A DNA stretch of 64,000 nucleotides from an uncultured Victivallales bacterium (GTDB taxonomy: Bacteria; Verrucomicrobiota; Kiritimatiellia; UBA8416; CAYRKB01). The notes under the pieces were generated by a model. It saw only the letters and a list, made by a program, of their open reading frames with translations, did no database searches and had not been told where the DNA came from. Shown in pieces: positions 32,062 through 51,729 of this stretch (within the stretch, counting starts at the first letter, position 1; each line of letters begins with the position of its first letter). The translations under genes were made by a program, and so were the position numbers. The stretch lies in the NCBI GenBank assembly GCA_964424705.1, contig CAYRKB010000001.1:22575-86574 (forward strand). Direction: 5' to 3'.

Positions 32062-32197
32062 CAAAGAGGGCATCGGCGGCTGTCTCTGGCGATTCCCCCC
32101 GCACGTAGGGTTGCGGATTCGCTCCGCCGTTCCTTCTTCTCTCTTGCATCATGAAATCCGTGCCAGGGGACATCCGGGCCAAGGTGATCGGGACGCC

Positions 32198-34039: not shown

Positions 34040-34153
34040 TCGGGCGGTGCGTTCGCCCCATCGGCCACGGATGTCGGGATTGCGGCGCCGCGATCTTTTG
34101 AGTAATCTCCGGCCCCGTGGACCGAATCGTCCGCGAGAAGGAGCTGAGTTCGC

Positions 34154-35359
34154 ATGCAATCAGACGCTGATATCCTGCTTCGCCATTTCGAGCGCTTGCG
34201 CCCCCTGGTCGTCAAGCCGGCCAACGGCTTCATCCGGTATCCGTACTGCATTCCGGGCGGATTCTACCAGCAGCAATGGGACTGGGATGGATTCTTCATT
34301 GCGACCCACCTGGCGGGGCGTACGCCCGCCCAGCCGGAGTACCTCAAGTACTGGGCGTTGAACTTCCTGGGGGCCGCCCTGCCAGGCGGCGAGATGTCCG
34401 CGTGCGTCAGCCCCGGGGGGCCAACGCCGGGACACGCATCGCTGCATATGAAGCCGTTTCTGGCGCAGGGCGCTGAGCTGGGCGCCCGGCTGCTTGGCGA
34501 CCGTTCCTGGCTGGCGGAGCATTACGAGTCCGTCGTGCGCATTGCCACGCGGCGGGAGACCACGCACTTTCACCCCGGGTGCGGGCTGTTTGCCTGGGAC
34601 GACGCGATGCAGTCGGGGGCGGACAACAACCCCGCGGTCGGCAACGATCCCGCCTCGGCGCGCCGGATCGCATCCTGCGACGTGAACGCCTTCCAGTGGC
34701 GCGAATACCTTGCCCTGGCGCGCATCGCGGCGGATCTCGGAAAGCCCGGGGACGCAGAGAAATTCAACCAGAAGGCCGCCGCGCTTGCGGCCGCGGTCAA
34801 CGCCCGCCTGTGGGACGCGGCGGCAGAGTCGTACTGGAATGTTGACACGCGATCGGGCGAGATGGTTCGCCGCGTCTCGTACTCCAATTTCGTGCCGCTG
34901 TGGGCCTGCATGGTTCCGGCCGACCGGGCGCGGGCCATGATCCGGCGCTATCTGTGGACCGAGGCGCACCTGCTGACGCCGTTCGGGCTGCGCTCGCTGT
35001 CGAAGGCGGATCCCGAGTACAACAACGAGAACATCATTATCCCGTACTCGAACTGGCAGGGCCCGGTCTGGCCGATTGCCAACTACTTCTACTTCGCGGC
35101 GCTGACGAGCTATGGCTTCGCGTCCGAGGCGCAGGAGCTGGTCCGGCGGCTTGTGGCGCTCTATTTGCGCGACATCGAATTCTGCGGCTCGCTGCATGAG
35201 AACTACGACGCCGAGACCGGCGCGCCGCTGGCGCCATCCGCTTCGCAGTCCAAGTCGGGCCTCGAGGGCGGCTTTATCGGGTGGAACCTGCTTCTTCAGG
35301 ACATGATGGAGATGGCCGACGGCCGGGCTTCTCTGCTTGCTCTTCAGCCGCAGGGGTGA
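34154..35359 (+). CDS. GH63-family hydrolase, short bacterial form (mannosylglycerate/glucosylglycerate hydrolase-like)
   Basis: It has 401 aa and a catalytic toroid only (...WQGPVWPIANYFYF..., HENYDAETG). It is a paralogue of the preceding gene. Confidence 0.7.
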   Translation: MQSDADILLRHFERLRPLVVKPANGFIRYPYCIPGGFYQQQWDWDGFFIATHLAGRTPAQPEYLKYWALNFLGAALPGGEMSACVSPGGPTPGHASLHMKPFLAQGAELGARLLGDRSWLAEHYESVVRIATRRETTHFHPGCGLFAWDDAMQSGADNNPAVGNDPASARRIASCDVNAFQWREYLALARIAADLGKPGDAEKFNQKAAALAAAVNARLWDAAAESYWNVDTRSGEMVRRVSYSNFVPLWACMVPADRARAMIRRYLWTEAHLLTPFGLRSLSKADPEYNNENIIIPYSNWQGPVWPIANYFYFAALTSYGFASEAQELVRRLVALYLRDIEFCGSLHENYDAETGAPLAPSASQSKSGLEGGFIGWNLLLQDMMEMADGRASLLALQPQG

Positions 35360-37353: not shown

Positions 37354-37531
37354 GATCGTGGGTGCCCCGCGGGTTATGCGCAGTGGCGGGGATCATGCAG
37401 GGGAAACGACAAAAGGTCAAGAATGTGACCTTCCGGCTAGAATACCATTGCGGCCTGCGCGCCGCTCCTGTATAAGAAGCGGCTCTAAAAAAAGACCCCG
37501 TCTGTTTTGTGTTGGCAGAGCCCATGCGTAA

Positions 37532-38281
37532 ATGAGCGAGGACGTTAAACATATTGTTCTGCGAGCCGTTGACGTGAAGCGCTACTATCACGGTGAGGAC
37601 GGCTCGGTCACGAAGGCGCTGGACGGCGTGACCCTCGACGTGGTCCGCGGCGAGTATCTTTCCATCATGGGCCCGTCGGGATCCGGGAAGTCCACCCTGT
37701 TCAACATGATCGGCGGAATCGACTGTCCGACCGAGGGCATGGTGTTTATCGACGAGATCGACATGGCCCAACTCGACGCCTACGAGCTGGCTTGGATGCG
37801 ATGCTACAAGATCGGCTATATATTCCAGAGCTACAACATTCTGCCCACCCTGAGCGCGCTGGAAAACACCACGCTGCCGATGCTTTTTGCGGGGCTCAGC
37901 CCGGGCGACGCCCGGGACAAGGCGGCGGAGATCCTGAAGATGGTGGGGCTGGGCGAGCGGCTGTTTCACCGGCCCTACGAGCTTTCCGGCGGCCAGCAGC
38001 AGCGCGTGGCCGTCGCGCGCGCGATCGCCAATGACCCGGTCATCATCCTTGCAGACGAGCCTACGGCCAACCTTGACACCAAGACCGGCGCGGAGATTAT
38101 CGACCTGCTCAACCGCCTGCGCAAGGAGCGCAACATCACGATCATTTCCGCGACGCATGACATGAAGATGCTCGACGTGTCCGACCGGATCCTGTGGATT
38201 CGCGACGGGCGGGTCGACCGGCTGGAGAAGCGGAAGGATTTGAATATCACGGTGGGCACCATCGGCGCGGCGGATCACTAG
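37532..38281 (+). CDS. ABC transporter ATP-binding protein (LolD/MacB-ATPase/FtsE-like), ATPase 1
   Basis: Walker A GPSGSGKST, the Q-loop, the signature LSGGQQQRVAVARA, Walker B ILADEPT and an H-loop are present. Confidence 0.9.
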   Translation: MSEDVKHIVLRAVDVKRYYHGEDGSVTKALDGVTLDVVRGEYLSIMGPSGSGKSTLFNMIGGIDCPTEGMVFIDEIDMAQLDAYELAWMRCYKIGYIFQSYNILPTLSALENTTLPMLFAGLSPGDARDKAAEILKMVGLGERLFHRPYELSGGQQQRVAVARAIANDPVIILADEPTANLDTKTGAEIIDLLNRLRKERNITIISATHDMKMLDVSDRILWIRDGRVDRLEKRKDLNITVGTIGAADH

Positions 38282-38299
38282 CGGCGACCGGGGCGTAAT

Positions 38300-38974
38300 T
38301 TGCAGGAAAGGGCGGACGTGGAAGCAGGCAACATACCCGAACAGATACGGCTGAGCTGGGCGATCGCCTTCCAGGTGAGCCTGGCTGGCCTGCGCCGGCG
38401 CTTCGGGCGGTCGATGATCACGATGTCGGGCGTGGTCCTTGCCATTGCCTTCCTGGCCTACATGCTTTCTTCGGAGAGCATCATCAAATCCCTGATTCAG
38501 CTCGATGACGATCAGCTCAACATCCGGCTCCAGGAGATGGGTGTAAACATTTTCCGCGGCGGCGGCACGGATCCCATGACCTACCTGCTGCTGGGGCTGA
38601 CGCTTCTGACCTGCACCGTCGGCATCACGAATTCCATGCTCATGGCCGTCACGGAGCGAACCCGAGAGATCGGGACGCTGAAGTGCCTGGGCGCCAGCGA
38701 TGACTTCATTCTCAAGACCTACTTCATCGAGTCCTCGCTCCACGGGGTCTGCGGGGCCGTGTTGGGCATGGTCATCGGGCTGCTCGTTGCCATCGGGGTG
38801 AACTGGATCAACTATGGCCACCAGGCGCTGTTCGCGCTGCCCCTGGTCGGCCTGCTCAGAGCCCTGGTCATATCCCTTGTCATGGGCGGCCTGATGACGG
38901 TCACCGCATCGCTGTTCCCCGCCTATGTGGCGGCGCGGAAGCAGCCCGTGGAAGCCTTGAGGGTGGAGGAATAG
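38300..38974 (+). CDS. minimal FtsX-domain ABC permease (4 TM, no large periplasmic domain)
   Basis: TM1 is MITMSGVVLAIAFLAYML and only ~45 aa lie before TM2. The C-terminal FtsX 3-TM bundle ends ...FPAYVAARKQPVEALRVEE. The track start is TTG at 38300; GTG at 38318 with a GGAAAGGG RBS is likely. Confidence 0.75.
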   Translation: MQERADVEAGNIPEQIRLSWAIAFQVSLAGLRRRFGRSMITMSGVVLAIAFLAYMLSSESIIKSLIQLDDDQLNIRLQEMGVNIFRGGGTDPMTYLLLGLTLLTCTVGITNSMLMAVTERTREIGTLKCLGASDDFILKTYFIESSLHGVCGAVLGMVIGLLVAIGVNWINYGHQALFALPLVGLLRALVISLVMGGLMTVTASLFPAYVAARKQPVEALRVEE

Positions 38975-39711
38975 TGAGCGACGCCATCATTACCATTCGC
39001 GGGGTCTCGAAGGTGTACCGGAAGGGCGAGGAGGAGGTCCACGCGCTCCGCGGGGTGACCCTCGACATCCAGAAGGGCCAGTACGTGTCGATCATGGGGC
39101 CGTCCGGGTCGGGGAAGTCCACGCTCTTCAATATCATCGGCGGGCTCGACACCCCGACTTCGGGGGACGTGCTGGTGGAAGGCCACAAGCTCGACCAGCT
39201 GAACTCGTCGCAGCTCTCGTGGTTCCGCTGTCACAAGATTGGCTTCATCTTCCAGTCGTTCAACCTCGTCCCCACGATGACCGCGCTGGAGAACGTTGCC
39301 ATCGCGCGCACCTTTGCGGGCGCGTCGCCGTCCGAGGCCCGGCGCGATGCGGCCGCGGTGCTCGAGAGCGTCGGCCTGGGCCATCGGCTGGACCACCTTC
39401 CGTCGCAGGTGTCGGGCGGGCAGCAGCAGCGCATTGCCATCGCGCGGGCCCTGGTGAACAAGCCTCTCATCATTCTGGCGGACGAGCCGACCGGGAACCT
39501 GGATCTCAAGACGGGCGAGGAAATCATCAACCTGCTGTCCGCGATGAAGAAGGACCTGGGGATCACGATCGTGACGGCCACGCACGATATGAAGATGCTG
39601 TCCCGCTCTGATTTTGTCATCCGGATCGACAGCGGCGCGATTGAGAGCATCACGGCGAAGAAGGACCTGAAGATCGTTGTGGGGTCGATTGACGGCAAGA
39701 CGGTGCTCTGA
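38974..39711 (+). CDS. ABC transporter ATP-binding protein (LolD/MacB-ATPase-like), ATPase 2
   Basis: Walker A GPSGSGKST and the signature LSGGQQQRIAIARA are present. It is ~55% identical to ATPase 1. Its start overlaps the permease stop. Confidence 0.9.
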   Translation: MSDAIITIRGVSKVYRKGEEEVHALRGVTLDIQKGQYVSIMGPSGSGKSTLFNIIGGLDTPTSGDVLVEGHKLDQLNSSQLSWFRCHKIGFIFQSFNLVPTMTALENVAIARTFAGASPSEARRDAAAVLESVGLGHRLDHLPSQVSGGQQQRIAIARALVNKPLIILADEPTGNLDLKTGEEIINLLSAMKKDLGITIVTATHDMKMLSRSDFVIRIDSGAIESITAKKDLKIVVGSIDGKTVL

Positions 39712-39718
39712 GGCCGGG

Positions 39719-40066
39719 ATGAATAAAATTGATCGGAGAAGCTCCCTCGCGGGAGTTCCGGTGATGCTGGATGGCGTTGCGGCGGAGCATAAGCCGGATG
39801 GGGCGATGGCCCTGCGGGTGAGGATCGGGCGCGGCGCGGGTTTTCTTGAGCGGTTCCGGCCTGCGGTGACGGAGCGGACGTACGAGCTGGACCGGTTCGG
39901 CGGGTTCGTGGTGGACGAGATTGACGGCAAAAGGAATGTGCTGAGCATCATTGACGCGTTTCAGGAGAGATTCAGGATGTCGCGCCGTGAGTCGGAGCTT
40001 GGCGTGGTGGCGTTTCTGAAGATTCTCTTAAAGAGAAACCTGATCGCGATTGTGGCGAAAGATTGA
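39719..40066 (+). CDS. PqqD-like protein (RiPP-recognition-element / peptide-chaperone fold)
   Basis: The segment ...RTYELDRFGGFVVDEIDGKRNVLSIIDAFQERFRMSRRESELGVVAFLKILLKRNLI fits the PqqD family pattern (YxLD..G..vW..iDG.rtv.eI...l...f.....a..dv..Fl..L...gLI). The ATG at 39719 follows the ATPase 2 stop. The track ORF starts at 39677. Confidence 0.6.
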   Translation: MNKIDRRSSLAGVPVMLDGVAAEHKPDGAMALRVRIGRGAGFLERFRPAVTERTYELDRFGGFVVDEIDGKRNVLSIIDAFQERFRMSRRESELGVVAFLKILLKRNLIAIVAKD

Positions 40067-40096
40067 CGCAGCGCGGGCTGTGCTGAAACAAGCGAG

Positions 40097-43000
40097 TTGT
40101 CCGTGACGATTATGAATGTGATGCGGTCTGAGGCCGGAAAGCGAGCGGGGCGGGGTCTGTCGAGGCCCGCGCTGAACATGGCCTGCGCTGTGGTGCTGGC
40201 TCTAACGGCGTTGGTTTCCCTCGGCCAGGAGGTCCCTGCGGCGCCTTCCGCGGAGGCCCGCGCCATGATTTCCGAGATGCGCGAGCTCTTCGGGTCGGCC
40301 GGGTCGATGGCGCCGGGGCAGCCGGGCAACATGGCTCTGGAGGCCGAGGTGGCCCGTCGCTTCGCAAAGAGCGGCTTCGCCACGGGATCGATTCCCTTCA
40401 GCGCGCCGGTCTTTGTGCCGGGCCGGACCGTTCTCACGCGGACCAACGAAGCCCCGGTGACTCTGTACACGATGCATCCCACGATGTACCGGCCGGGCAA
40501 TTTCGCCGAATCCGAGTTTGCGGCCGACCTGGTGTATCTAGGGAAGGGCGAGTATGAGGACCTGGCGCGGGTCAAGGGCTCGCAGCTGGAGGGCGCCATC
40601 GCGTTGATGGACTTCAACTGCGGCGCCCGGTGGCGGGACCTGCTGCGGTTCGGCGTGAGCGGCTTTGTCTTCATCGGCGCGCCGTCCTACGAGTATGCCG
40701 ATTCCTACTCGAAGGTGTACAACACCGAGGTCTCCGTGCCGCGCTTCTTCGCTGAGGCGGAGTCCGGCGGGAAGCTGAAGGCCGCCTGCCTTGCCGCCGA
40801 AAAGGACGCGTTCGCAATCCGGGTCGACGTCCAGTCCGAGCCGTCGCGATTCCAGCCGGGAGAGCTGAAGGACCTCTGGGTTCTTGTCCCCGGAAGCGAT
40901 CCTGAGCTGGGCAAGGAGATCGTGCTGTTCACGGCGCGGATGGACGCCAATAGCGTGGTGCCGGAGCTGGCGACCGGCGGCCAGGCCGCGATCAACCCGT
41001 ACCTCATGCTCAAGATGCTGGAAGATTTCACGGCGAAGCCGCCGAAGCGATCCGTGCTGCTCGTTGCGGTGAACGCGCACACGCAGGCGCACTTGGGCGA
41101 GCGCATCCTCGCGTGGCACCTGCTGGCGGATAGCAATGATGCCGCGAAGCTCCGCGGCGAGATGGCCCGCGAAATGAGGGTCGCGCGCCTGTACAGCGAG
41201 AACTACGGGCTGCTCAAGCTGGCCCCGGTGTCGCTCGACCAGGGCAGGCTTTTTGCCGCGGTCGAAATCCTTACCCAGCTTGACCTCAAGCGGCAGGCGC
41301 AGCGCAAGGCGCAGCGGGACGCGGCGAAAGACGGGGTGCCAGCGCTTGAAGCGACGCCAGCCGCCACGAACGCAAATGCCGAGATTTCCGAGGTCGATAC
41401 GAACGACGTGCTCGACCTCGCGGTCTTTGAGGAGCGGGACTATCGCGAAGCCATCGAGCGGGGCGTCAAGGCCGCGCGGGAGGAGGAGAAAGGCAGCTTT
41501 TTCTCGCGGCGCATGCGCGATGAGAAGATGGACCTGGCGCTCGCGCAGGAGCGGCAATGGCTCGAAAGCATGGAAGGCATGCCCTACGCCGAGATCCTGG
41601 AGATGGCGCAGCTGGCCAAGCCGGTGTTTGACGACGAAAAACTGTTCGAAAGCTGGCGGATTGACCTCGATTCATCGAGCGGGCAGCGCCTTTCCGTCAA
41701 GAAGGAAATTCAAACTGCGGCAATGAAGACCAAGAACGCGCTGCTGCAGGAGCGGATCCGCGCGACCCGGGACAAGCAGCTGAGCGAGGCCGAGCGAAGC
41801 GCGCGCCTGGCCGACGTGGAGCAGCGGAGGGTGGACGCAACCCGCGTGCTCGTGATGTTCAACAAGATCGACTTCGGCATCGGCCGGCGGAAAGTGCGCT
41901 ACAGGGACATTGCGGCGAACGAGGCGCAGCGCACGCTGCTCAAGCGGTACCGGGACGAGCTCACGGAGAAGTTCTCCTTCTGGCAGCGCCACCATCGGGG
42001 CCGGCTGGAGGCCGATGCCGCCGGGGATTCGGTCCGCGATCAGCTCGGGGGCGGGAAGGTTGTCCTCGCGCTGACCTTGGAGATGACAGCCAACAGCGGG
42101 AAGCTTGCTTTTTCCGCGAGCTGCCCGGGCTTCGAGCCGTCGTGGCAGAAGAACTTCGGCCAATTTGTCTCCGGGATTGTTGGCAATCTCTCCTCCAACC
42201 GTGCAGACCGGTGGACCCCCTACGTGGATTCGCTGAACCCCGTGCCGGGTCTGCAGCAGGTGGACCTGCTCTATTCAACGGACTCGGCCGTGCGGTACTT
42301 TGTCGCGGCGAAGAACGGAGTCCAGGGCTGCGGCACCCCGGCCCTGGCCCTCAAGAATGCGCTGGCCGGCAAGGGGCGGGTCTTCAGCCCGGGGGACACG
42401 CTGGAAGCGCTTGATGCGCAGCAGATCTTCGACCAGCAGGCGTGGCTGCGCGAGTTCCTGCCGGCGCTTCTGAACGATCCGAAGATGACCGCCCGCGAGA
42501 ACCTGGACGTTACGCTGGTGGGGCATGGCGCCACGTTCGACACGAGCCGGGGCCTGTGGTCCACGCTTCTCGGGACGTTCGCCATGGAGGAGATGACCGC
42601 GAACATTGTGCCGGAGAAGGCCCTGCCGGGCTGCATGGTCGTGCTTTACAGCAAAGCGGATCCTACGGCCGCGGCGAACTTCCTGTTGGATGGCGACGTC
42701 GTCAACTGCTATGCGGCGATGAGCGATATTACCGGGAAGGCTGTGGTCTACGGAATCGCCGAGGGCGGCGGCATGGCGCCGCTGGCCTACCAGATGGATA
42801 AGAACTGGCGCCAGGTGGTGGAAGCGCTGGACAAGGGCCGCATCCAGACCACCATGCAAATGGACAGCAACATCGCCCGCGACCCCGCCAAGACGCTGCC
42901 CATGTTCCCGTGCCGCGAGTTCCCGATCTTGGACAGGGTGGACCCGACGCTGGTGGGAACTGAACCGATTACCGTCGCGACCATCTGGCCGAAGATAGGA

Positions 43001-45625
43001 AGCAGCAAGTCGGATCCCGCGAAGTACGGGGTGCACGGCTTCTTCCTGCCGAACAGCGTCTGGTCGCACGCTGCGTCCGGCCCCGGCGCGGTCTACCTGA
43101 ACCGGAAAGACGGTGCGGCGGCTCAGGAATCCCTGATGGTCATCACGGAAAAGAAGCGCTGTTCGATCAATGCCACCCCTGAGAAGCCGGAGGGCACCGG
43201 CTACGCCACCGCCGGGGAGCTTGGGTCCGACCTTTTCGCGCACACGGCGGAGGACATGGATTCGCTGAACGGGTTCCGGAGAAATCGGCTCAAGGGCGTT
43301 GCCAACTCGCTTGTCGAGCGGTTCATCGGGGAGGGGAAGAAATCGCTCCAGGCCATGGATGTTGCGCGGCGAGCCAAGGACCACGGGGCGTTTCTGCAGG
43401 CGAACTACCGGGCGCTGGGAAGCGAGATCAAGGCGTACCTGCAACTCAGCGCCATGAATGCCGACATGCTGAAGGCCATCATCCTGTACATGGCCCTGAT
43501 GCTGCCTTTCTGCTTCTTCATCCAGAAGCTGCTTTTCGATTTCGACCTGCTGCAGCATGAGCTGCTCGCGTTCTCGGGATGCTTCGTCGCGATGTACAGC
43601 CTTTTCCGCGTGATCCACCCCGCCTTCACCGTTGCGGAAACGCCGGAGGCGATCTTCATTGCGTTCGTTCTAGGGGCGATCGGGCTCTTCGTCACCATGA
43701 TCATGCATTCCCGGTTCAAGTCGGACATGCAGATGATTTTCGGGAAGGTCGGCGGCATAGGTGACGACGCGGCCTATGGCACGGTCGGCACGACGGCCAT
43801 GATGGTGGGAATTCACAACATGCGGCGCAGGCGGGTGCGCACGGTGCTGACCACCTCGACCGTGATGCTCGTGATCTTCACGATGCTGACGTTCTCCAGC
43901 GTTTCGCAGCGGCTGGACCCCACGCTGATCAGGAAGGCGTCGGATGCGCCGTATACCGGGCTCTTCTTCCACTGGCCCGGCGGGAAGAATATGGACCAGG
44001 ATACGGTCAACGTCCTGCGAAACATCTTCTCGGACCGGGCGGATGTTGTTGTGAGGCGGACGATGGCGCTCACGGGCGCTTGGCCGATCGAGCCGGTGGG
44101 CGGCGGGCGGAGCGAGAGCGCCACGAATCTTATTCACGGCATCAAGAGCCTTGTCGGGCTGCCGTCGAACGATAGGGTGTTTGCCATGTCGCGACCCCTG
44201 GTTGCGGGCCGCCATTTCTCCGCCGATGATGCGAGCGAGATCATTCTGCCGGCGAAGGCCGCGGAGGCCATGAATTTGTCCGTGGCGGACGTGGGCCGGA
44301 CCACGCTGCGCTTTCATGGCGCGGACCTTGCGCTGGTGGGCATTGCGGACGACCAGCGCCTGCGCCTCGTCCGCGACATGAATCCCAATCTGCCGTTTCT
44401 GCCGTTTCTTGCGAATCAGGCGATGGGCGGTCCGAAGAAGGATCCCGAGTCGCTCGAGATCGCGGAGGATGACGTGAGCGCGATCGTGGCCGACACGGCC
44501 TCGCTGGTGCTGCTCCCCGCGACGGTGGCGAAGAACTGCGGCGCGCTCCCGCACAGCGTTTCCGTCCGCTTCCTTGATGAAGTGGTGGCGGGCCCCGGCT
44601 TTCACCTGTGGGAGGAGATGGACCGCCTGCTGACGATTACGCACGCCCGGTTCTACATCGGCAGCGAGAGCGCGTTCAAGGCCAACTCGGAGGCCGAGCG
44701 TGTCACGCAGGCGGGCATCTATTTCGTGAACAGTAACTACCGGACGTCCATCGGCGGGCTTGCGCGGCTTATCATTCCGCTGCTGATTGCCGGCCTGATC
44801 ATTCTCAACACGATGCTGGGCACGGTCTACGAGCGCAAGTCCGAGATCGCCATTTACAACGCCATCGGCCTGAACCCGACGCACATCTTCATGTTCTTTC
44901 TGGCGGAGGCGTTCGTGTACAGCTTCATCGGGTCCGTGGGCGGGTATCTCATCGGGCAGAGCCTGGCGATGACGCTGCAGCATTTTCACCTGATCCGGGA
45001 CATCGGCGTCAACTTCTCGTCGCTGATGGTGGTGTATGCCATCCTGTTCACCATTGGCCTGGTGCTTCTCTCCACGATCTACCCGGCCTACGTGGCGACG
45101 CGCACGGCGGTGCCCTCCGGAAAGCGGCGCTGGTCCATGCCGGCGCATGACGGCCACACGATGGACGTGGCGTTCCCCTTCATTTACGAGGGCAGCCTTT
45201 CTTCCGGCGTGATGTACTACATTTACGAGGACTTCCTCGCGTGCACGGAGAAGTCGCTCGGCAGCGTGATCGCCACGTTCGAGAGCAAGGCCGTTACCAC
45301 GGACGCCGAGGGAATGCCGGTGTACGCGCTGACGTATTCGATCGGGCTTGCGCCCTTTGACCTGGGCGTTACCCAGCGGGTGAAGTTCGTGGCGCGCTAT
45401 GAGAAGCGCGTGAGCAGTTACCGCCTGTCCGTCTCCATCGAGCACCTGTCCGGGCTGGACTCGAACTGGGTGAGCTTGAACCGCACGTTCCTGGAGCGCA
45501 TGCGGAAGTTTCTCATGGTGTGGCGCAATATGCCGCCGGCGATGTACGGGTGGTATTCGGATTGTGGAAAGAAGTTGTATCTGGACCAGCCGCTGCCGAC
45601 AAAGCCGGAGAGGGCTGTTCAGTAG
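40097..45625 (+). CDS. 1842-aa fusion: signal anchor + PA/M28-peptidase-like ectodomain + long charged/coiled linker + MacB/FtsX-type ABC permease
   Basis: The N-terminus ...MACAVVLALTALVSLG leads into M28/PA-like blocks (EGAIALMDFNCG...; LFTARMDANSVVPELATGGQAAIN; VAVNAHTQAHLGER). A MacB-like TM1 (RVRTVLTTSTVMLVIFTMLTFSSVSQRLDP) is followed by a ~300-aa periplasmic domain, then FtsX TM2-4 (...IAIYNAIGLNPTHIFMFFLAEAFVYSFIGS...). The start codon is uncertain: TTG 40097, GTG 40103 or ATG 40112. Confidence 0.75.
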   Translation: MSVTIMNVMRSEAGKRAGRGLSRPALNMACAVVLALTALVSLGQEVPAAPSAEARAMISEMRELFGSAGSMAPGQPGNMALEAEVARRFAKSGFATGSIPFSAPVFVPGRTVLTRTNEAPVTLYTMHPTMYRPGNFAESEFAADLVYLGKGEYEDLARVKGSQLEGAIALMDFNCGARWRDLLRFGVSGFVFIGAPSYEYADSYSKVYNTEVSVPRFFAEAESGGKLKAACLAAEKDAFAIRVDVQSEPSRFQPGELKDLWVLVPGSDPELGKEIVLFTARMDANSVVPELATGGQAAINPYLMLKMLEDFTAKPPKRSVLLVAVNAHTQAHLGERILAWHLLADSNDAAKLRGEMAREMRVARLYSENYGLLKLAPVSLDQGRLFAAVEILTQLDLKRQAQRKAQRDAAKDGVPALEATPAATNANAEISEVDTNDVLDLAVFEERDYREAIERGVKAAREEEKGSFFSRRMRDEKMDLALAQERQWLESMEGMPYAEILEMAQLAKPVFDDEKLFESWRIDLDSSSGQRLSVKKEIQTAAMKTKNALLQERIRATRDKQLSEAERSARLADVEQRRVDATRVLVMFNKIDFGIGRRKVRYRDIAANEAQRTLLKRYRDELTEKFSFWQRHHRGRLEADAAGDSVRDQLGGGKVVLALTLEMTANSGKLAFSASCPGFEPSWQKNFGQFVSGIVGNLSSNRADRWTPYVDSLNPVPGLQQVDLLYSTDSAVRYFVAAKNGVQGCGTPALALKNALAGKGRVFSPGDTLEALDAQQIFDQQAWLREFLPALLNDPKMTARENLDVTLVGHGATFDTSRGLWSTLLGTFAMEEMTANIVPEKALPGCMVVLYSKADPTAAANFLLDGDVVNCYAAMSDITGKAVVYGIAEGGGMAPLAYQMDKNWRQVVEALDKGRIQTTMQMDSNIARDPAKTLPMFPCREFPILDRVDPTLVGTEPITVATIWPKIGSSKSDPAKYGVHGFFLPNSVWSHAASGPGAVYLNRKDGAAAQESLMVITEKKRCSINATPEKPEGTGYATAGELGSDLFAHTAEDMDSLNGFRRNRLKGVANSLVERFIGEGKKSLQAMDVARRAKDHGAFLQANYRALGSEIKAYLQLSAMNADMLKAIILYMALMLPFCFFIQKLLFDFDLLQHELLAFSGCFVAMYSLFRVIHPAFTVAETPEAIFIAFVLGAIGLFVTMIMHSRFKSDMQMIFGKVGGIGDDAAYGTVGTTAMMVGIHNMRRRRVRTVLTTSTVMLVIFTMLTFSSVSQRLDPTLIRKASDAPYTGLFFHWPGGKNMDQDTVNVLRNIFSDRADVVVRRTMALTGAWPIEPVGGGRSESATNLIHGIKSLVGLPSNDRVFAMSRPLVAGRHFSADDASEIILPAKAAEAMNLSVADVGRTTLRFHGADLALVGIADDQRLRLVRDMNPNLPFLPFLANQAMGGPKKDPESLEIAEDDVSAIVADTASLVLLPATVAKNCGALPHSVSVRFLDEVVAGPGFHLWEEMDRLLTITHARFYIGSESAFKANSEAERVTQAGIYFVNSNYRTSIGGLARLIIPLLIAGLIILNTMLGTVYERKSEIAIYNAIGLNPTHIFMFFLAEAFVYSFIGSVGGYLIGQSLAMTLQHFHLIRDIGVNFSSLMVVYAILFTIGLVLLSTIYPAYVATRTAVPSGKRRWSMPAHDGHTMDVAFPFIYEGSLSSGVMYYIYEDFLACTEKSLGSVIATFESKAVTTDAEGMPVYALTYSIGLAPFDLGVTQRVKFVARYEKRVSSYRLSVSIEHLSGLDSNWVSLNRTFLERMRKFLMVWRNMPPAMYGWYSDCGKKLYLDQPLPTKPERAVQ

Positions 45626-45764
45626 TCGGTGATCCGTGGCCGGTGATCAGTAACGAGTGGCGGAAGATTGGGAGTCAGGATGAAGAGGACAGGGGTATAT
45701 TCGAGGTCCATTCTGGATACTGACTACTGGATTCTGTCTTCTGCTTACGTAAGAGGAGGTCTCT

Positions 45765-47774
45765 GTGTCGTTCACTGACGACAAAGAACTGAACGAATAT
45801 CGGCAGATCATGGCGCCGCCCGAAGTGTCAGGCTTCGAGGATGGCTTCAACTGGAAAGCCATCGCCGGCGCTATTTTCCTGGGCTTCATCGTGATGCCCG
45901 CGTCGGACTATCTCAGCCTTGTCATCGGCGGCGACGCCGGGCTTGGCAACACCATGAAGTGGATTCTGGTGATCCTCTTCGCCGAAATCGCGCGCCGCTC
46001 GTTCACCAGTCTGAAATGTCAGGAGCTGTACGTTCTGCAGTTCATGGTCGGCTATGCGATGGCCGACCAGTTCACCGGATACCTGTGGACCCAGTACGTG
46101 GCGCAGTCGGACTATATCAAGGGGCTGGGGCTCGACCTCCCCAAATGGGCGTTTCCCGCCGCCGAGGAATTGGAGCGGAGCGGCCGCACGTTCCTGGCTA
46201 AGCCGTGGCTGCCCATCATTGCCCTTACCATGTTCGGGGTCTTCATCAGCCGCATCCACAACTACGGCCTCGGCTACGTGCTTTACAGGGTTGTCAACGA
46301 CGTTGAGAAATTACCCTTCCCGTTCGCGCCCGTTGCGGCGGCAGGCATTGTGGCCCTGTCCACCGACCGCGGCGACGAGGCGAAGTGGCGCCGGCGCTGT
46401 TTCAGCATCGGCGGCATCGTTGGGATTACGTGGGGCATGATCTACATTTGCGTGCCCGTGATCACGGAGGCCATTCTTCCCAAGCGCGTCGAGCTCGTCC
46501 CCCTGATCTTTCTCGATTTCACGACGCAGTTCGGCAAGCTGCTGCCGGCCGTCCCTTTCAACCTCGTGCTGGACGTTGGCGCGTTTCTGGCCGGTATGAT
46601 CGTGCCGTGGTGGGGGGTGATCGGAGGAGCGGTCGCGCTGCTCATGACCTGGATTCTGAACCCGTTCCTCCAGCATATCGGCGTCCTCTCCCAGTGGCGG
46701 CCGGACATGGGCTACATCAATACGACGTTCGTCAACAGCATTGATTTCTATCTGTCGTTCGGAATCGGGGTGTCCCTGGCCATTACGTTCAGCCAGATGT
46801 TCATCACGGTCGGGGAGCGGATCAGGGAAAAGATGAAGCCCGGCGCGCAGCGCGTGATCACCCACAGAAAGACCATGGGGCAGGGGTTTCGTGAGAATTG
46901 GAAGATCCTGTTCACTAACAACCGTGCCCGCGGCGATTTCTCGATTTGGGTCGCCATCGGCATTTACCTCTTTGAGACGTTCGCATGGATCGGGCTAGGC
47001 CTGTACCTGATCGGGCCGCGCTATCCGTGGATGCTGCTGACCTTCTTTGCGCTGGTCTACACGCCGCTCTTCTCGTATGCGACGGCCAAGATGGAAGGGC
47101 TGATCGGCCGCGGGCTGAACCTGCCGATGCTCAGGGAAGTGACGATTCTCGCCACGGGGTACCAGGGCTCGGCCATCTGGTTCGCGCCCATGCCGATCGC
47201 GAACGTGGGGAGCGAGACGTCCGGCTTCCGGGTGCTCGAATTGACGGGCACGAAGATCCAGAGCCAGATCAAAACCATCGTGCTCACTCTGCCTATTGTC
47301 GTCATTGCGTCATTCTTCACGGCGGAGATTCTCTGGCGCATGGCGCCTGTGCCGTCGGCCGCGTACCCATGGACCGAGCGCATGTGGGAGATGAATATCC
47401 GGAACTGGGGCGTAATCTACACCTCGACGCTGGAGGGCGGATCCCAGTTCCTGGAGGCCCTGAACGGCAATTACGTGGTCTGGGGCCTCGTGGCCGGGTC
47501 TACGCTGCTTGGCTCGTTGACCATGCTGGGGCTGCCGGTCATGTTTATTTTCGGCGCGCTGGGCGGCCTGTCGCAGGTGTCCCCCGGCGCGATGTTCTGC
47601 GGCCTGGTCGGCGCCATTGTGGGACGGTTCTATTTCAGGAAACGTTACAAGGACATGTGGCTGAAGTATATGACGGTCGTGCTGGCAGGCTTCGGTTGCG
47701 GGATGGGCATTATCGCCATGGTCGGGATGGCCTTTACTGTGATCACGCGAATGTTAAGCCCCACGTTGTGGTGA
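45765..47774 (+). CDS. large polytopic integral membrane protein (>=14 predicted TM helices), family unknown
   Basis: GTG at 45765 is preceded by AAGAGGAGG. Hydrophobic helices run throughout (AIFLGFIVMP..., ILVILFAEIA..., WLPIIALTMFGVFI..., etc.). It has no ABC or MFS signatures. Confidence 0.7.
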   Translation: MSFTDDKELNEYRQIMAPPEVSGFEDGFNWKAIAGAIFLGFIVMPASDYLSLVIGGDAGLGNTMKWILVILFAEIARRSFTSLKCQELYVLQFMVGYAMADQFTGYLWTQYVAQSDYIKGLGLDLPKWAFPAAEELERSGRTFLAKPWLPIIALTMFGVFISRIHNYGLGYVLYRVVNDVEKLPFPFAPVAAAGIVALSTDRGDEAKWRRRCFSIGGIVGITWGMIYICVPVITEAILPKRVELVPLIFLDFTTQFGKLLPAVPFNLVLDVGAFLAGMIVPWWGVIGGAVALLMTWILNPFLQHIGVLSQWRPDMGYINTTFVNSIDFYLSFGIGVSLAITFSQMFITVGERIREKMKPGAQRVITHRKTMGQGFRENWKILFTNNRARGDFSIWVAIGIYLFETFAWIGLGLYLIGPRYPWMLLTFFALVYTPLFSYATAKMEGLIGRGLNLPMLREVTILATGYQGSAIWFAPMPIANVGSETSGFRVLELTGTKIQSQIKTIVLTLPIVVIASFFTAEILWRMAPVPSAAYPWTERMWEMNIRNWGVIYTSTLEGGSQFLEALNGNYVVWGLVAGSTLLGSLTMLGLPVMFIFGALGGLSQVSPGAMFCGLVGAIVGRFYFRKRYKDMWLKYMTVVLAGFGCGMGIIAMVGMAFTVITRMLSPTLW

Positions 47775-47795
47775 CAAGGGGAGTACGGGAATTTC

Positions 47796-50735
47796 ATGAG
47801 CGAAAAGACTGAAGGTTTAGGAAGAATGACGGGGCGGGCGTTTGTCCTCGGCCTCTTCTTTGCGGCGGTTTTTGCCTGGTTTACGGTCCTGCGCGAAAAC
47901 CGTCCTCCCTATGAGGCTTTGACGGCGACCAACATTCCCGTCCTCCCGTATGCCCTGCTCGTGGTCTCCGTGCTCGTTATCAACCCGCTGGTCAAGTTTC
48001 TGCGGCTGGCGCGGGTTTTTTCGCGCGTTGAGCTGCTCGTGATCTTCTTGATGGGAATGGTGTCGAACGGCATCGTTTCCTACGGTCTGCAGGCGCAGCT
48101 CGTGCCGCTTGTAGCGGGCCCGTCGAGCCGCTTCAACCACCCCGGGGTCAGGTGGAACGTGTATGTCGAGCCGTACCTCAATGAGGATTTCTATCTCGTC
48201 TCGAAGGGTTCCAGCAAGGCCGCCGCCAGCTACAGGGACGCGGACGCGGCCGCGGAGAAGGCAAAGTCCGTGCTCAAAGCGGCGCAGGACCTGACGGTGT
48301 GCAGGGAGGACCAGCAACGGGCCCAGGAGGCGCTGGACGGGCTTGTCGCGCCGCAGGGCCAGCCGCAGGTGCCTGAGACCGTGCGGCAGGGCTACGAACG
48401 CAAGCTGCGCATTGCCCAGCGCCAGTACCAGCAGGCTGAGAAGGCTTGGCAGGTGTATGCCGCCGCGAACGTGGAGCGTGAGGTCATTGCCACATTTGGC
48501 GAGAAGATCAAGCTGCTGGATGTCGAAAAGGCGGCGCGGAAGGAAGCCCTGGCGGCCATCAAGAAGCCGGCGACCGATTTCGTCAGCGAGTTTGAGAAGG
48601 GATTTGCGCCGGAGAAGCGGGCGATCCCCGGGTTTATCTATATCACGGGCGAAGGCTGGGAGAGCTACTCGTCCCGCTTCGAGCGCATGGTAAAGGGCCG
48701 GAAGGCCTTCGCCGAGCTGTATGAGGCAGATTGCCTGCTGGCCAGAGCCCGGCAGGGCGAAGGCCTCGACGTGGCAGCCGTGGACGCGGCTCTGGGAAGA
48801 GCGATTGTCCTGCTGGAACACATCGGCGACATGTCGCAGCTTGCTGAGCGGAAAGCTGCGTTCTCGGCCAAGCAGGCGGAGCTCGATGCCATCCGCGCGA
48901 AGGAGCAGTCAGGGCTGAAGGACCTCCAGGAGCGCGGCTACTATGCTAAGGACCGCGACATCGCATCGATCGAGAAGCAGACCAAAGCTACGACGAAGCG
49001 GATCGAGCTGCTGGACAAGCAGATTCTCAAGCTGACGGAGGCCGTGAAGGCGAAGATCGACCCGGAGGCGACAGTGCGCGGGCGCGCCGTCGCCGTGCTG
49101 GAGACCGCGCGCTCGATCCGCGCTGAATTCGGCACGGCGAAGGATATCCCGGCGCTGCGCGGCCGGCTGGCGGCAAGCCTTGCGACGTTCCGCTCGTTCG
49201 ACGCGTCCCTGCGCCGGTTCCTTGTGGGGGATATCCAGTGGAGCGTCTGGGCGAAGCCTCTCTTCAACTGGAGCCTGATCGTCTTTGCGACGTACATCGT
49301 CCTGATGTCGCTTAACGTCCTTATCTTCAGGCAGTGGGCCCATAATGAGAAGCTCATCTACCCGCTGGCAGAGCTTCCGCTGATCATGGCTGGCGCGGAT
49401 GACGTGGAACAGAAGGGCGTGCTGCCCCTGGTGTTCAAGAGCGGACTTTTCTGGACCGGGTTCTGCATATCCGCGGTCATCCTCGGGTGGAACCATCTGG
49501 CGGACGCCAGGATCATTGCCAACATCAGCCCGATCTCGCTCGACTACAAGTGGGGATCCTATGTGGACGGCAGCGTATTCAACGCGCTCAAGGAGACCCG
49601 CTTCAAGATTATCTTCTCCGTGATCGGCCTGACATTCCTCGTTCCGGCGGGAGTTTCTTACTCCATGTGGTTTTGGCAGGTGCTATGCATGGTGGAACTG
49701 CTCGTCATGGTCTGGCTTGGCATGGGGCAGAGCCGCGACTCATTCCAGTACCACTTCACGTATCTCATGAACTACCAGACGGCGCAGGGCGGCGGCGCCC
49801 TCATCGTCTTCGCCTCGGTCATTCTCTGGAAGTGCCGGAAGTACCTCTTGTCCGCCTTCTCGGCGCAGTCCGTTGCGGGCCTGGATCCGTCCGAGCGCAG
49901 CGAGCTGCGGGTGTCGTCCGCGCTATTCCTTGCGGGGTCCGTTGCGCTCGTGGCCATGTTCACGCTACGGCTCAACGTGAACATCTTTTACTCTGTCATC
50001 ATGTACCTGCTTTTGCTCGTCCTGACGATCGGCCTGGTGCGCGCGGTCGCAGAAGGCGGCGTCCTTGGCACCCAGGCGTTCTTCAACCCCTTCCACTTTA
50101 TCCGGCATGTGTTCGGCATGGACAAGGCCTGGAACTCGCCCGTGCTGATGGCGCCGCTGTGGATCTTTGTGGCGATGATGTACGTCGACATCAAGTCCTT
50201 CATCGCGCCCGCGATGGCCAACGCGATGAAGCTCCGCGACGACATGCGCATCAACCGCCTCAAGTTCCACGGTGCCGTGTGGGCCAGCATTCTGGCCGCG
50301 ATGGCCGTCGGGTTTGCGGTGCACCTGATCCTCGCCTACTCGGGCGGCACCGGCAAGATGAGCGGGTGGCATTACTCGGGCGGCGTGCAGGACCAGATGG
50401 GCTTTGGCTTCATCCAGCGCATGATGGAAGAGAAGCCCGTGGACGTGGCGGGGGTGCGGTGGTGGATGCTCGCCGGCGCGTCGATCATGGTGATGGTGAT
50501 CCTGCTGCGCCAGCAGTTCAACTGGATTACGCATCCGATCGGCCTGATCATGTGCATCAACCCGATGATGTTCCTGTTCTGGGGATCCATGTTTATCGGA
50601 TGGTGTTTCAAGTCGCTCGTGAGCAAATACGGGAATCGGGAAACCTACCAGCGCCTCCGCTATCTGGCCGTCGGCCTGATCGTTGGCGAGCTTTTTGTTG
50701 CGGTCCTCGGGTGGCACCGGTTTGACTTCTGGTGA
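47796..50735 (+). CDS. 979-aa integral membrane protein: N-terminal TM cluster, ~300-aa cytoplasmic/periplasmic coiled-coil insert, C-terminal multi-TM domain; family unknown
   Basis: TMs lie at residues ~15-110. Residues ~150-470 are charged and helical (AAEKAKSVLKAAQDL...QERGYYAKDRDIASIEKQTKATTKRIELLDKQILKLTEAVKAK). About 11 further TMs follow to the C-terminus. Confidence 0.7.
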   Translation: MSEKTEGLGRMTGRAFVLGLFFAAVFAWFTVLRENRPPYEALTATNIPVLPYALLVVSVLVINPLVKFLRLARVFSRVELLVIFLMGMVSNGIVSYGLQAQLVPLVAGPSSRFNHPGVRWNVYVEPYLNEDFYLVSKGSSKAAASYRDADAAAEKAKSVLKAAQDLTVCREDQQRAQEALDGLVAPQGQPQVPETVRQGYERKLRIAQRQYQQAEKAWQVYAAANVEREVIATFGEKIKLLDVEKAARKEALAAIKKPATDFVSEFEKGFAPEKRAIPGFIYITGEGWESYSSRFERMVKGRKAFAELYEADCLLARARQGEGLDVAAVDAALGRAIVLLEHIGDMSQLAERKAAFSAKQAELDAIRAKEQSGLKDLQERGYYAKDRDIASIEKQTKATTKRIELLDKQILKLTEAVKAKIDPEATVRGRAVAVLETARSIRAEFGTAKDIPALRGRLAASLATFRSFDASLRRFLVGDIQWSVWAKPLFNWSLIVFATYIVLMSLNVLIFRQWAHNEKLIYPLAELPLIMAGADDVEQKGVLPLVFKSGLFWTGFCISAVILGWNHLADARIIANISPISLDYKWGSYVDGSVFNALKETRFKIIFSVIGLTFLVPAGVSYSMWFWQVLCMVELLVMVWLGMGQSRDSFQYHFTYLMNYQTAQGGGALIVFASVILWKCRKYLLSAFSAQSVAGLDPSERSELRVSSALFLAGSVALVAMFTLRLNVNIFYSVIMYLLLLVLTIGLVRAVAEGGVLGTQAFFNPFHFIRHVFGMDKAWNSPVLMAPLWIFVAMMYVDIKSFIAPAMANAMKLRDDMRINRLKFHGAVWASILAAMAVGFAVHLILAYSGGTGKMSGWHYSGGVQDQMGFGFIQRMMEEKPVDVAGVRWWMLAGASIMVMVILLRQQFNWITHPIGLIMCINPMMFLFWGSMFIGWCFKSLVSKYGNRETYQRLRYLAVGLIVGELFVAVLGWHRFDFW

Positions 50736-50742
50736 TGCTCCC

Positions 50743-51681
50743 GTGAAGAAACCCGACCGCCAGCCGCGCGAGTTCGCCTGGGACGGCGTCGAGTTCCAGA
50801 TCCCCTGGAACTGGGAGCTCGGGCTCTATGAGTTCATGCGCAAGGGGGTTTCCCGTATCGAGGTGGAAGACGAATACGTCGTCCGGCTCGAAGCGGAATG
50901 GATCCGGCCGACGAAGCGGGCGCTGAGGCCGGCTGCCATCCTTGAAAAATACAAGGATGCAGCGGGCGCCCTCACGCGCATGGCGCATGAAACGATCGAA
51001 ATTCATGGCCTGCCGCCCGGCTGGGCGGCCACGCGTGCCCTGCAGAGGACCACGGGCAGCTCCCGGAAGAAGCGCGGGCTGGCGGTGTCGGAGCGCGAGA
51101 GCATTTGCGCGATCTACGTGTGCCCCCAGTCGAAGCTCCTCCTCTTCGTCCTGCTGCACTTTTCATCCGAAGACAAGGAAAACCCGGAAGAGGTGATGCG
51201 CATGATCGCGGGCAGCTTCCGGGATCACGCTGAGGCCCCGCTCATCCCCTGGAAGCTGTTCGATATCGCGTTTGAATTGCCGCGCGAATTCAAGCTCGCC
51301 CGCGCGTCGTTCGATGTCGGCGCCAAGCATATGGTGTTTCGCTGGAAGACGCGCCGGCTCCATCTGTGGCATTTCGCGTGCGCCGACATGTTCCTCAAGG
51401 GCGGGGAAGGCATGGAGGAGTGGGTCACCGGCTACCTGAACGCCTATTCGCAGATTCGCGGAATTGTCTTCATGCCCGGAAAGAACGGGGAAATCCTCTG
51501 GCGGCGGCGCGCGCGGCATCTCTTTGGGCACCGCAACGAGATTGCCAGCTGGTGTTTCCAGTACAAGGCCGGGTGCCGCCTGGACGCTGGAAGAAACCAG
51601 CTCCTGGCCTGGGTCTATCACTACCGCGAGGCGGGCGACCTGCACGTAATCCCCGCGTCCTGCCTGCCGCTCGGGAGTTGA
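50743..51681 (+). CDS. soluble hypothetical protein (312 aa), last gene of the plus-strand operon
   Basis: A GTG start lies 7 nt after the preceding stop. The protein is Trp/aromatic-rich with two similar halves (...FAWDGVEFQIPWNWELGLYEF... / ...PLIPWKLFDIAFELPREFKL...). The track ORF 50683..51681 extends upstream in-frame across the previous stop region. Confidence 0.55.
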   Translation: MKKPDRQPREFAWDGVEFQIPWNWELGLYEFMRKGVSRIEVEDEYVVRLEAEWIRPTKRALRPAAILEKYKDAAGALTRMAHETIEIHGLPPGWAATRALQRTTGSSRKKRGLAVSERESICAIYVCPQSKLLLFVLLHFSSEDKENPEEVMRMIAGSFRDHAEAPLIPWKLFDIAFELPREFKLARASFDVGAKHMVFRWKTRRLHLWHFACADMFLKGGEGMEEWVTGYLNAYSQIRGIVFMPGKNGEILWRRRARHLFGHRNEIASWCFQYKAGCRLDAGRNQLLAWVYHYREAGDLHVIPASCLPLGS

Positions 51682-51729
51682 CGGGGCCGGGGCCCGTGAT
51701 TCCCCGGTCTGCCAGCGGCGACGATTCGC

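Follow-up and report, generated by a model that had tools for sequence, protein, structure and literature searches.

Two paralogous ABC ATPases and a minimal FtsX permease in a conserved operon of PVC-group bacteria: a candidate asymmetric type VII ABC motor

The locus and its genes

We analyzed a stretch of 64,000 nucleotides from an uncultured Victivallales bacterium (contig CAYRKB010000001.1; the whole stretch is called the window below), in which positions 37532-39711 are filled by three open reading frames (ORFs) of the + strand. They encode two ATP-binding cassette (ABC) ATPases of the MacB/LolD type, A1 and A2, and between them a small FtsX-fold permease, sX. By gene content and order, A1, sX and A2 belong to a conserved, predicted eight-gene operon of bacteria of the Planctomycetes-Verrucomicrobia-Chlamydiae (PVC) group, in which a second FtsX unit forms part of a very large membrane protein (Giant), and on balance the comparisons presented here favor a single motor made of both ATPases and both FtsX units. 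A first-pass annotation of the window had treated the three genes as the core of a transporter; the genes are real, but the larger operon with its PqqD-like, OPT-like and DUF6785/6784 proteins and a protein of about 300 amino acids (aa) had been missed. The genes and domains of the operon are as follows.

37532..38281, + strand: A1, MacB/LolD-type ABC ATPase, 249 aa (Pfam ABC_tran, E=7.6e-32)
38300..38974, + strand: sX, minimal FtsX-fold permease with four transmembrane (TM) helices, 224 aa (Pfam FtsX, 65.1 bits)
38974..39711, + strand: A2, second MacB/LolD-type ABC ATPase, 245 aa (Pfam ABC_tran, E=2.4e-36)
39720..40066, + strand: PqqD-like protein with a peptide-binding fold of the RiPP recognition element (RRE) type, about 115 aa (Pfam PqqD, 31.7 bits, cut-off 23.4)
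40112..45625, + strand: Giant, 1837 aa from the ATG at 40112 (1842 aa from 40097; Pfam FtsX at aa 1560-1670)
40244..41131, + strand: Giant, N-terminal part of the ectodomain, putative PA/M28 pseudo-peptidase, aa ~50-345 (AlphaFold2 (AF2), Foldseek and family profile)
43466..43726, + strand: Giant, three extra TM helices ahead of the FtsX unit (hydropathy, AF2)
43841..45079, + strand: Giant, FtsX unit consisting of TM1, periplasmic domain, TM2, coupling helix YERKSEIAIYNAIGL, TM3 and TM4 (Pfam, hydropathy, AF2, Foldseek)
43898-44749, + strand: Giant, MacB-like periplasmic domain within the FtsX unit, about 284 aa
45149..45622, + strand: Giant, C-terminal cytoplasmic alpha/beta domain, about 155 aa (AF2)
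45765..47774, + strand: OPT-like polytopic membrane protein, 669 aa (Pfam OPT, E=0.022, below threshold)
47796..50735, + strand: DUF6785 and DUF6784 polytopic membrane protein, 979 aa, with a soluble insert of about 400 aa (Pfam)
50683..51681, + strand: p332, about 300-330 aa, without a family, the last conserved gene of the operon (tblastn conservation)

The stop codon of sX (TAG, 38972-38974) overlaps the start codon of A2 (GTG, 38974-38976, with GGAGG five bases upstream), and the PqqD-like gene starts 8 nucleotides past A2, its mechanically assigned ORF start being 39677. In public databases sX begins with the GTG at 38318, which gives 218 aa; the TTG at 38300 gives 224 aa. A scan of positions 37000-52500 for promoters and terminators yielded no more sites than shuffled sequences did.

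A minimal permease and two ATPase clades

The FtsX domain of sX (PF02687) scores well above the cut-off of 25.5 bits, and the protein has four hydrophobic segments (aa 44-62, 96-114, 149-167 and 177-195). A loop of only about 33 residues between TM1 and TM2 replaces the periplasmic domain, and the motif of this loop, LN.LLQ..GV.I, varies little or not at all among the homologues. More than 1396 homologues of nearly constant length (215-231 aa, with 197-231 aa as the full span of the hits) were found; the few named ones come from Kiritimatiellae, Lentisphaeria and Planctomycetota, and the closest relative (81%) is encoded in a metagenome-assembled genome (MAG) of an uncultured Victivallales bacterium. 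Matches of sX to sequences of solved structures (LolF, YtrF, MacB and LolC/E) cover TM2-TM4 only. Neither the sX homologues nor the best 120 homologues of A2, all of which are 243-248 aa long, contain a fusion joining A1, sX or A2, the sole fusion among the operon proteins being that of the PqqD-like protein with Giant.

The two ATPases are 56% identical across 237 aa, and each has a Walker A motif (GPSGSGKST), a Q-loop, a signature (SGGQQQR), a Walker B motif (ILADEPT), a D-loop (NLD) and an H-loop (ATHD). The first-pass annotation, which had reported two ATPases of about 55% identity with intact Walker A/B, signature and H-loop around an FtsX permease lacking an ectodomain, is thus borne out, also across orthologues: the catalytic motifs are all kept in 20 A1 and 64 A2 sequences. 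A search of the same sequences for a degenerate ATP site returned none, so that the asymmetric degeneration of one catalytic site, which that annotation had suggested looking for, is seen in neither clade. Judged by their motifs, both ATP sites look catalytically competent. The top NCBIfam models for A1 and A2 are LolD, MacB, YbbA, DevA and FtsE, every one of them scoring below its equivalog cut-off, and the nearest relatives with solved structures are MJ0796, Spr0694, YbbA, MacB and LolD.

In neighbor-joining trees, for which bootstrap values were computed on a subsample, the ATPase genes that come immediately behind sX group together (A2, bootstrap 95), and those at the head of the operon make up a second clade (A1, bootstrap 100), whose members precede sX in type I gene orders and PqqD in type II gene orders (the types are listed below). 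The position of A2 is fixed as well: 74 of 74 A2-clade genes are directly downstream of sX, with the exception of one A1-A2-sX locus. The single ATPases of more distant loci cluster with A1 (bootstrap 81), and A1, A2 and the single ATPases together are split from the canonical MacB-type ATPase of one locus (bootstrap 88). Identity across loci is about 77-81% for A1 and about 64-74% for A2. The trees and gene positions indicate that A1 and A2 are distinct, old paralogues, each separately conserved with its own orthologues; A1 is the conserved one, near the ancestral type, and A2 is the divergent one.

The clearest non-conservative difference between the clades lies just past the Q-loop, where A1 has TALENvTLPM.FAG and A2 has TALENVaiaRiFaG. 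In LolD and MacB, the stretch of the helical subdomain that follows the Q-loop faces the coupling helix of the permease, and by analogy we infer that the clade-specific stretches of A1 and A2 would do the same. Both ATPases also end in a conserved extension of about 20 residues, KDL.I.VG.I (window positions 38230-38281 and 39660-39711), which runs past the usual end of the MacB-type ATPase domain and is found in the single-ATPase relatives, too.

The second FtsX unit and the ectodomain of Giant

Giant begins with a signal anchor and an ectodomain of about 1080 aa; three TM helices then lead to an FtsX unit whose periplasmic domain is MacB-like, and the last 155 aa or so form a cytoplasmic domain. 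Homologues of Giant are 1636-1958 aa long. The Pfam FtsX match (aa 1560-1670) scores 52.4 bits against a cut-off of 25.5, and about 284 residues separate the TM segment at aa 1249-1267 from that at aa 1552-1570. This agrees with the second FtsX-type permease that had been noticed earlier at the C-terminus of a 1842-aa protein, with a periplasmic domain estimated at about 300 aa, and the domain can now be assigned a MacB-like fold.

The AF2 model of aa 1101-1842, built from an alignment of 35 sequences (predicted local distance difference test score, pLDDT, 80.8), comprises the three extra TM helices (model residues 2-46, 52-79 and 83-116), the FtsX unit, whose periplasmic domain is of mixed alpha/beta structure, and the C-terminal alpha/beta domain. 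In Foldseek searches this model matched MacB (5gko, E=1e-10) as well as Spr0695, LolE/LolC, YtrF, HrtB and YbbP. The periplasmic domain alone matched the isolated periplasmic domain of MacB (5c59) with a template modeling score (TM-score) of 0.57, and the Pfam domain MacB_PCD was found in the Giant homologues P0133, P0135, P0136 and P0143. The coupling-helix segment, ERKxEIAxYNAIGL, is well conserved across the family. Conserved, too, is the C-terminal domain, whose strands and helices occupy model residues 588-728; it gave just weak SRPBCC/START-like Foldseek matches (E ~0.01-0.03).

The model of the N-terminal 1125 residues (pLDDT 88.7, predicted TM-score 0.86) has four parts: an aminopeptidase fold of the PA/M28 type comes first, followed by a long stretch of helices, by alpha/beta and beta-rich segments, and finally by a helical stalk that reaches the membrane. 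Its Foldseek matches include 2ek8 (E=1.4e-14), PaAP, BSAP, the transferrin receptor (TfR) and GCPII, and a profile of the Giant family matched 2ek8 (E=6e-6), nicalin (E=0.005) and nicastrin (E=0.21). Compared with M28 peptidases, the family has lost the motifs HxD, replaced by (P/R)xD, GADD, replaced by GAQ or GGQ, and EE, replaced by HT. An active Peptidase M28 was therefore rejected as an identification of the ectodomain, the fold being present and the zinc-ligand and catalytic motifs being replaced family-wide. Because of this replacement the modeled N-terminal domain is a predicted pseudo-peptidase and more likely a binding module.

In one locus (L090, 2094-14445) the Giant homologue still matches Peptidase_M28. 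Behind it are encoded an OPT-like protein, a second FtsX protein of 1005 aa in the place of sX, and a DUF6785 protein; no ATPase gene lies within the part of this locus in view.

Conservation and gene orders of the operon

A scan of one genome per species retrieved 80 loci, 77 of them distinct, to which eight metagenome look-ups were added; synteny was determined by TBLASTN. The recurring set in these loci consists of A1, sX, A2, the PqqD-like protein, Giant, the OPT-like protein, the DUF6785/6784 protein and a protein of about 300 aa. The hosts are Lentisphaerota, Kiritimatiellota and MAGs of Planctomycetota/Verrucomicrobiota, and there is a cultured carrier, Oligosphaera ethanolica DSM 24202 (locus L013, type II). 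The gene orders were grouped as follows.

Type I (the order of the window), 15 loci: A1-sX-A2, followed by or divergent from PqqD-Giant-OPT-like-DUF6785
Type I variant, 1 locus: A1-A2-sX
Type II (majority), 48 loci: (DUF6785 or OPT-like)-sX-A2, usually with the ~300-aa gene behind it
Type III (distant, sX 40-45% identical), 9 loci: sX and one ATPase, no other gene of the system within 10 kb
Unclassified, contig ends, 4 loci

As the 10-kb flank stops short of the first genes of type II operons, five Giant homologues of this type were looked up directly, and all five showed the order ATPase-PqqD-Giant-~670 aa-DUF6785-sX-ATPase-~300 aa. A1 and A2 co-occur in every sufficiently covered locus of types I and II, and the presence of two ATPases in all five Giant-centered look-ups implies that both are universal in these types. 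The window departs from the majority order in that the sX-A2 block has moved to a place between A1 and PqqD.

Several loci depart from the full set. L045 consists of A1-sX-A2 alone and L031 of A1-A2-sX; two MAG contigs (L040, 185-4950, and L063, 842-5875) carry A1, sX, A2, the PqqD-like gene and the OPT-like gene, while Giant and DUF6785 are on neither contig. Giant is represented by distant homologues (25-28% identity) in two loci, L089 (8494-16881) and L091 (8486-18918), referred to as type IV, which have the order short FtsX permease (sX), one ATPase, Giant, and a DUF6785 protein of 670 aa that lacks the large insert; an OPT-like gene is also present in L091. Their ATPase is A1-like, with 62-65% identity to A1 and 53% to A2, and neither a PqqD-like gene nor a second ATPase was seen in the two loci. 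Finally, distant loci from Latescibacterota and some Planctomycetota (L079, 8116-11484; L078, L080-L085) encode a short FtsX permease of 237-245 aa with a loop of up to about 55 residues; this permease and its single A1-like ATPase adjoin an S41 CtpB-like peptidase, and the rest of the operon is not there.

One asymmetric motor or two transporters

Two ATPases and two FtsX units are a gene content compatible with the 2+2 assembly of type VII ABC systems. One asymmetric motor, composed of sX with A2 and Giant with A1, seems to us a better explanation of the data than two homodimeric transporters, and we assign it a probability of about 0.55. The three genes would then provide the ATP-driven core of one eight-gene envelope machine. 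One half of the motor would be the bare four-TM sX docked to A2, its dedicated ATPase, and the other half the C-terminal FtsX unit of Giant, with the MacB-like periplasmic domain, docked to A1. A heterodimer of A1 and A2 would close on two ATP molecules and act via the coupling helices of Giant and sX to move TM1 and TM2 of Giant, and this movement would pass to the periplasmic domain and the ectodomain of about 1080 residues, as it does in MacB, LolCDE, FtsEX and BceAB. In such a motor, sX would complete the transmembrane pair as its silent member, a role comparable to that of the N-terminal FtsX half of BceB, and there would be two ATPase paralogues because each is specialized for one of two diverged membrane partners. 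The first-pass annotation had already proposed a heterotetramer of these four proteins. Comparative genomics strengthens this proposal by placing the two ATPases and the two FtsX units in a single conserved system; the physical A1:A2:sX:Giant complex, the assignment of each ATPase to a permease and the mechanotransmission we infer.

The single motor is favored, firstly, by L089 and L091, where the genes of the two permeases flank a single ATPase gene in the manner of LolCDE. Secondly, A1 stays with sX and A2 where Giant is not nearby (L045, L031, L040 and L063), which would not be predicted if A1 served only a separate Giant transporter. Thirdly, a homodimer of the bare sX would be without the periplasmic output element of all characterized type VII systems (PMC5985334). 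Fourthly, BceB sets a precedent for the pairing of a domain-less with a domain-bearing FtsX unit, and YbbP and LolCE are asymmetric as well. The overlap of the sX stop codon with the A2 start codon, the clade difference past the Q-loop, the recurrence of the gene set in the 77 loci and the separation of A1 and A2 into two clades that both keep every catalytic motif were also counted in favor of the single motor.

Other observations weigh against it. No ATPase site is degenerate, and thus the hallmark by which obligate heterodimers of ABC ATPases are usually recognized is absent. The sX-A2 pair and the adjacency of A1 to PqqD and Giant are equally expected of two separate complexes, (A2)2(sX)2 and (A1)2(Giant)2. 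Nine distant loci from Latescibacterota and Planctomycetota have an sX-like permease and one ATPase with no Giant within 10 kb, which suggests that the bare sX may work as a homodimer. If Giant is truly absent from the genomes of L040 and L063, which keep A1, A2 and sX without Giant on the contig, the pairing of sX with Giant is not obligatory. Apart from the PqqD-Giant fusion the parts of the operon are unfused, and a comparison of the coupling helices of sX and Giant between types with one and with two ATPases, in which both show modest changes, assigns no partners.

Several of these observations are shared by the strongest competitor of the single motor, in which one operon would encode two independent homodimeric type VII transporters, a minimal (A2)2(sX)2 and a MacB-like (A1)2(Giant)2, acting in the same pathway as separate complexes. 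This we consider possible, though rather unlikely. It would account for the invariant, translationally coupled pair of sX and A2, for the majority order, in which A1 lies beside PqqD-Giant and about 10 kb from sX-A2, for the type III loci with their single ATPase, and for the fully intact sites of both ATPases, as homodimers would have. There is also precedent for two ATPases of one operon that serve separate transporters: the ytr operon of B. subtilis is organized in this way, and YtrEF has been solved as a type VII complex of its own (PDB 9o9x). Two transporters do not fit well with L089 and L091, where a single ATPase gene is available for both permeases, nor with the retention of A1 beside sX-A2 both without Giant (L040, L063) and in free-standing blocks (L045, L031), and they would leave the sX homodimer without its output element, as discussed above.

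The same blocks, A1-sX-A2 and A1-A2-sX, which move as a unit and in part without Giant (L045, L031, L040, L063), could alternatively mean that A1, A2 and two copies of sX form a complete ABC unit, with Giant as a membrane partner or substrate receptor whose FtsX unit has no ATPase or borrows one transiently. Type VII systems are known to recruit membrane partners, for example BceS in the case of BceAB (PMC12646458). However, a symmetric sX dimer offers no obvious reason for two specialized ATPases, the conserved coupling-helix segment of Giant suggests that Giant still docks an ATPase, and the type IV gene order, sX-ATPase-Giant, also speaks against such a unit, which we regard as improbable. 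That one of the two ATPases is a spare copy of the other, redundant or needed only under certain conditions, left by a recent duplication and structurally meaningless, is very improbable despite the 56% identity and the shared motifs, as the duplication is old and both clades are kept, highly conserved and at fixed positions, in all covered type I and II loci over several phyla.

If the single asymmetric motor is real, its two specialized ATPases, both with intact sites, and its permease pair split into a bare and a domain-bearing unit would make it a natural test case for the part that each ATP site and each coupling helix plays in mechanotransmission. A search of open-access papers and preprints yielded no account of DUF6785, of the operon, or of type VII systems whose two ATPases differ, and no paper there combined FtsX and PqqD for these phyla.

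Accessory genes and a possible role of the operon

The PqqD-like protein is recognized by Pfam, while its NCBIfam PqqD and lasso-PqqD matches are below the cut-offs. Its gene precedes Giant in L001, L007-L009, L086-L088, L092 and L093, and in two Giant homologues (P0127 and P0130) the PqqD-like protein is fused to the N-terminus of Giant, which ties it to the cytoplasmic side of Giant.

Two polytopic membrane proteins follow Giant. The OPT-like protein has at least eight hydrophobic segments and was found by TBLASTN in 58 of the 85 loci; the DUF6785/6784 protein (Pfam DUF6785, E=8.9e-75; DUF6784, E=5.6e-17) has about 14 and was found in 61 of the 85. A pairwise comparison gave a weak alignment of their C-terminal parts that is not significant (E=0.23), and a short motif is common to both (EKLPFPFA in the former, EKLIYPLA in the latter). 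From these sequence features, both may be remote members of the OPT superfamily. Among sequences of the PDB no relative of the OPT-like protein or of p332 was found, and eight weak matches of the DUF6785 protein to cereblon (E 0.02-0.08) were judged irrelevant. In a Kiritimatiellae MAG (L001, 1-743), the DUF6785 homologue is 1342 aa long and contains Laminin_G_3 and DUF2341 inserts, whose domain assignment suggests an exposed lectin-like domain.

The last conserved gene, p332, has no match in Pfam or NCBIfam either. By TBLASTN it is located after A2 in 29 loci, its position in the majority gene order. In L092 a small ParE-toxin gene pair (18003-18471) is inserted between A2 and this last gene of about 300 aa.

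Upstream of the operon, the window contains two genes for MGH1-like glycoside hydrolases (GH63/trehalase-type) and a divergent gene for a 633-aa GYF_2-domain protein (31973-35359, and 35452-37353 on the - strand). In L093 a hydrolase related to these MGH1-like genes sits after the operon.

Several products of the operon have peptide-related folds, namely the pseudo-aminopeptidase domain, the PqqD-like protein and the OPT-like protein, and one may speculate that the operon handles peptides or proteins at the envelope. As a tentative and rather doubtful extension of the single motor, the operon could encode an undescribed envelope machine, in which the motor of two ATPases and two FtsX units would mechanically drive the pseudo-peptidase ectodomain, which resembles those of nicastrin and the transferrin receptor, and cooperate with two OPT-superfamily-like permeases and the cytoplasmic PqqD-like protein, for example in the capture and hand-over of peptides or proteins at the cell surface. 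On this reading the ATPases would be an obligately heterodimeric pair, for the first time in a type VII ABC system. The operon is widespread in the poorly studied phyla Lentisphaerota, Kiritimatiellota and Planctomycetota, as the number of sX homologues shows.

Comparison with known systems

The ATPase subfamily and the FtsX fold place the predicted system in the type VII ABC superfamily. Known arrangements in this superfamily are the homodimers of MacB and FtsX, the LolCE heterodimer, and the fused permeases BceB and YbbP, with 2:1 complexes of BceA:BceB and YbbA:YbbP (PMC5985334; PMC12646458). The premise of the first-pass annotation that FtsX/MacB systems are normally homodimers was therefore incomplete, since LolCDE, BceAB and YbbAP are asymmetric type VII systems. 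According to reviews and structure papers, however, MacB, FtsEX, LolCDE, BceAB, YbbAP, HrtBA and YtrEF all use two copies of one ATPase, and asymmetry, if any, is confined to the membrane components.

In fold, the FtsX unit of Giant and its periplasmic domain match MacB best, and the proposed mechanotransmission follows the same principle; MacB and FtsEX are homodimers with one ATPase sequence, where the operon has two. Membership in MacAB-TolC was rejected, as no gene for an HlyD-family adaptor is adjacent in the operon of the window or in the related loci. FtsEX was rejected on the basis of NCBIfam scores (FtsE, 183-213 against a cut-off of 264.85; FtsX, 27-32 against 225-255) and the lack of an EnvC-type partner in the operon.

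LolCDE, the lipoprotein extractor of E. coli and the analogue named in the first-pass annotation, is likewise hetero-oligomeric, with two different FtsX-fold permeases beside the ATPase gene, whereas here the heteromer is proposed. The analogy gains from L089 and L091, which share the permease-ATPase-permease gene logic, but BceAB and YbbAP are better analogues, as BceB pairs domain-less with domain-bearing units. LolC and LolE resemble each other as paralogues, each with a periplasmic domain, and LolD is a homodimer encoded by one ATPase gene. Identity with LolCDE was rejected because of the NCBIfam scores (LolD, 212-238 against 307.75; LolC/LolE, 55 against 362), the lack of a periplasmic domain in sX, and the presence of two ATPase genes. 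YbbAP-TesA of E. coli likewise combines a pseudo-symmetric FtsX pair with a MacB-type ATPase, YbbA being among the best solved matches of A2, and YbbAP works with a periplasmic partner (PMC12646458); unlike sX and Giant, YbbP carries two periplasmic domains on a single chain, to which two identical YbbA copies are bound.

For the ectodomain of Giant the parallels lie outside ABC transporters. Nicastrin, nicalin and the transferrin receptor likewise have a PA/M28 fold in which metal-binding and catalytic residues are replaced, and their inactive domains are binding or gate modules of membrane complexes. None of them is fused to an ABC permease, and the sequence similarity of Giant to them is marginal.

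BceAB of B. subtilis (PDB 7TCG/8G4C) shares the most design features: as here, it combines a domain-less and a domain-bearing FtsX unit, extra TM helices beside the latter, and an ATPase of the MacB/LolD type (PMC5985334; PMC12646458). Between TM1 and TM2, Giant has a large periplasmic domain (about 284 aa, MacB fold), whereas sX has only its short loop, for which the N-terminal unit of BceB is the precedent. BceB unites both units and two linker helices in one polypeptide of 10 TM helices, with the large domain between TM7 and TM8, while here sX has 4 TM helices and Giant 1 + 3 + 4. BceA is a single gene used twice, whereas the operon has two conserved ATPase paralogues, and Giant adds the pseudo-peptidase ectodomain of about 1080 aa and a C-terminal cytoplasmic domain. 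No histidine kinase or response regulator of the BceRS type was found among the operon genes, the examined neighbors in the window or the related loci; with the FtsX units on two genes and no BceRS-type genes, membership in the BceAB family was rejected, and the likeness is one of design only. By analogy, the closest description of the system would be a BceB split into two genes and supplied with a giant ectodomain and two ATPase paralogues.

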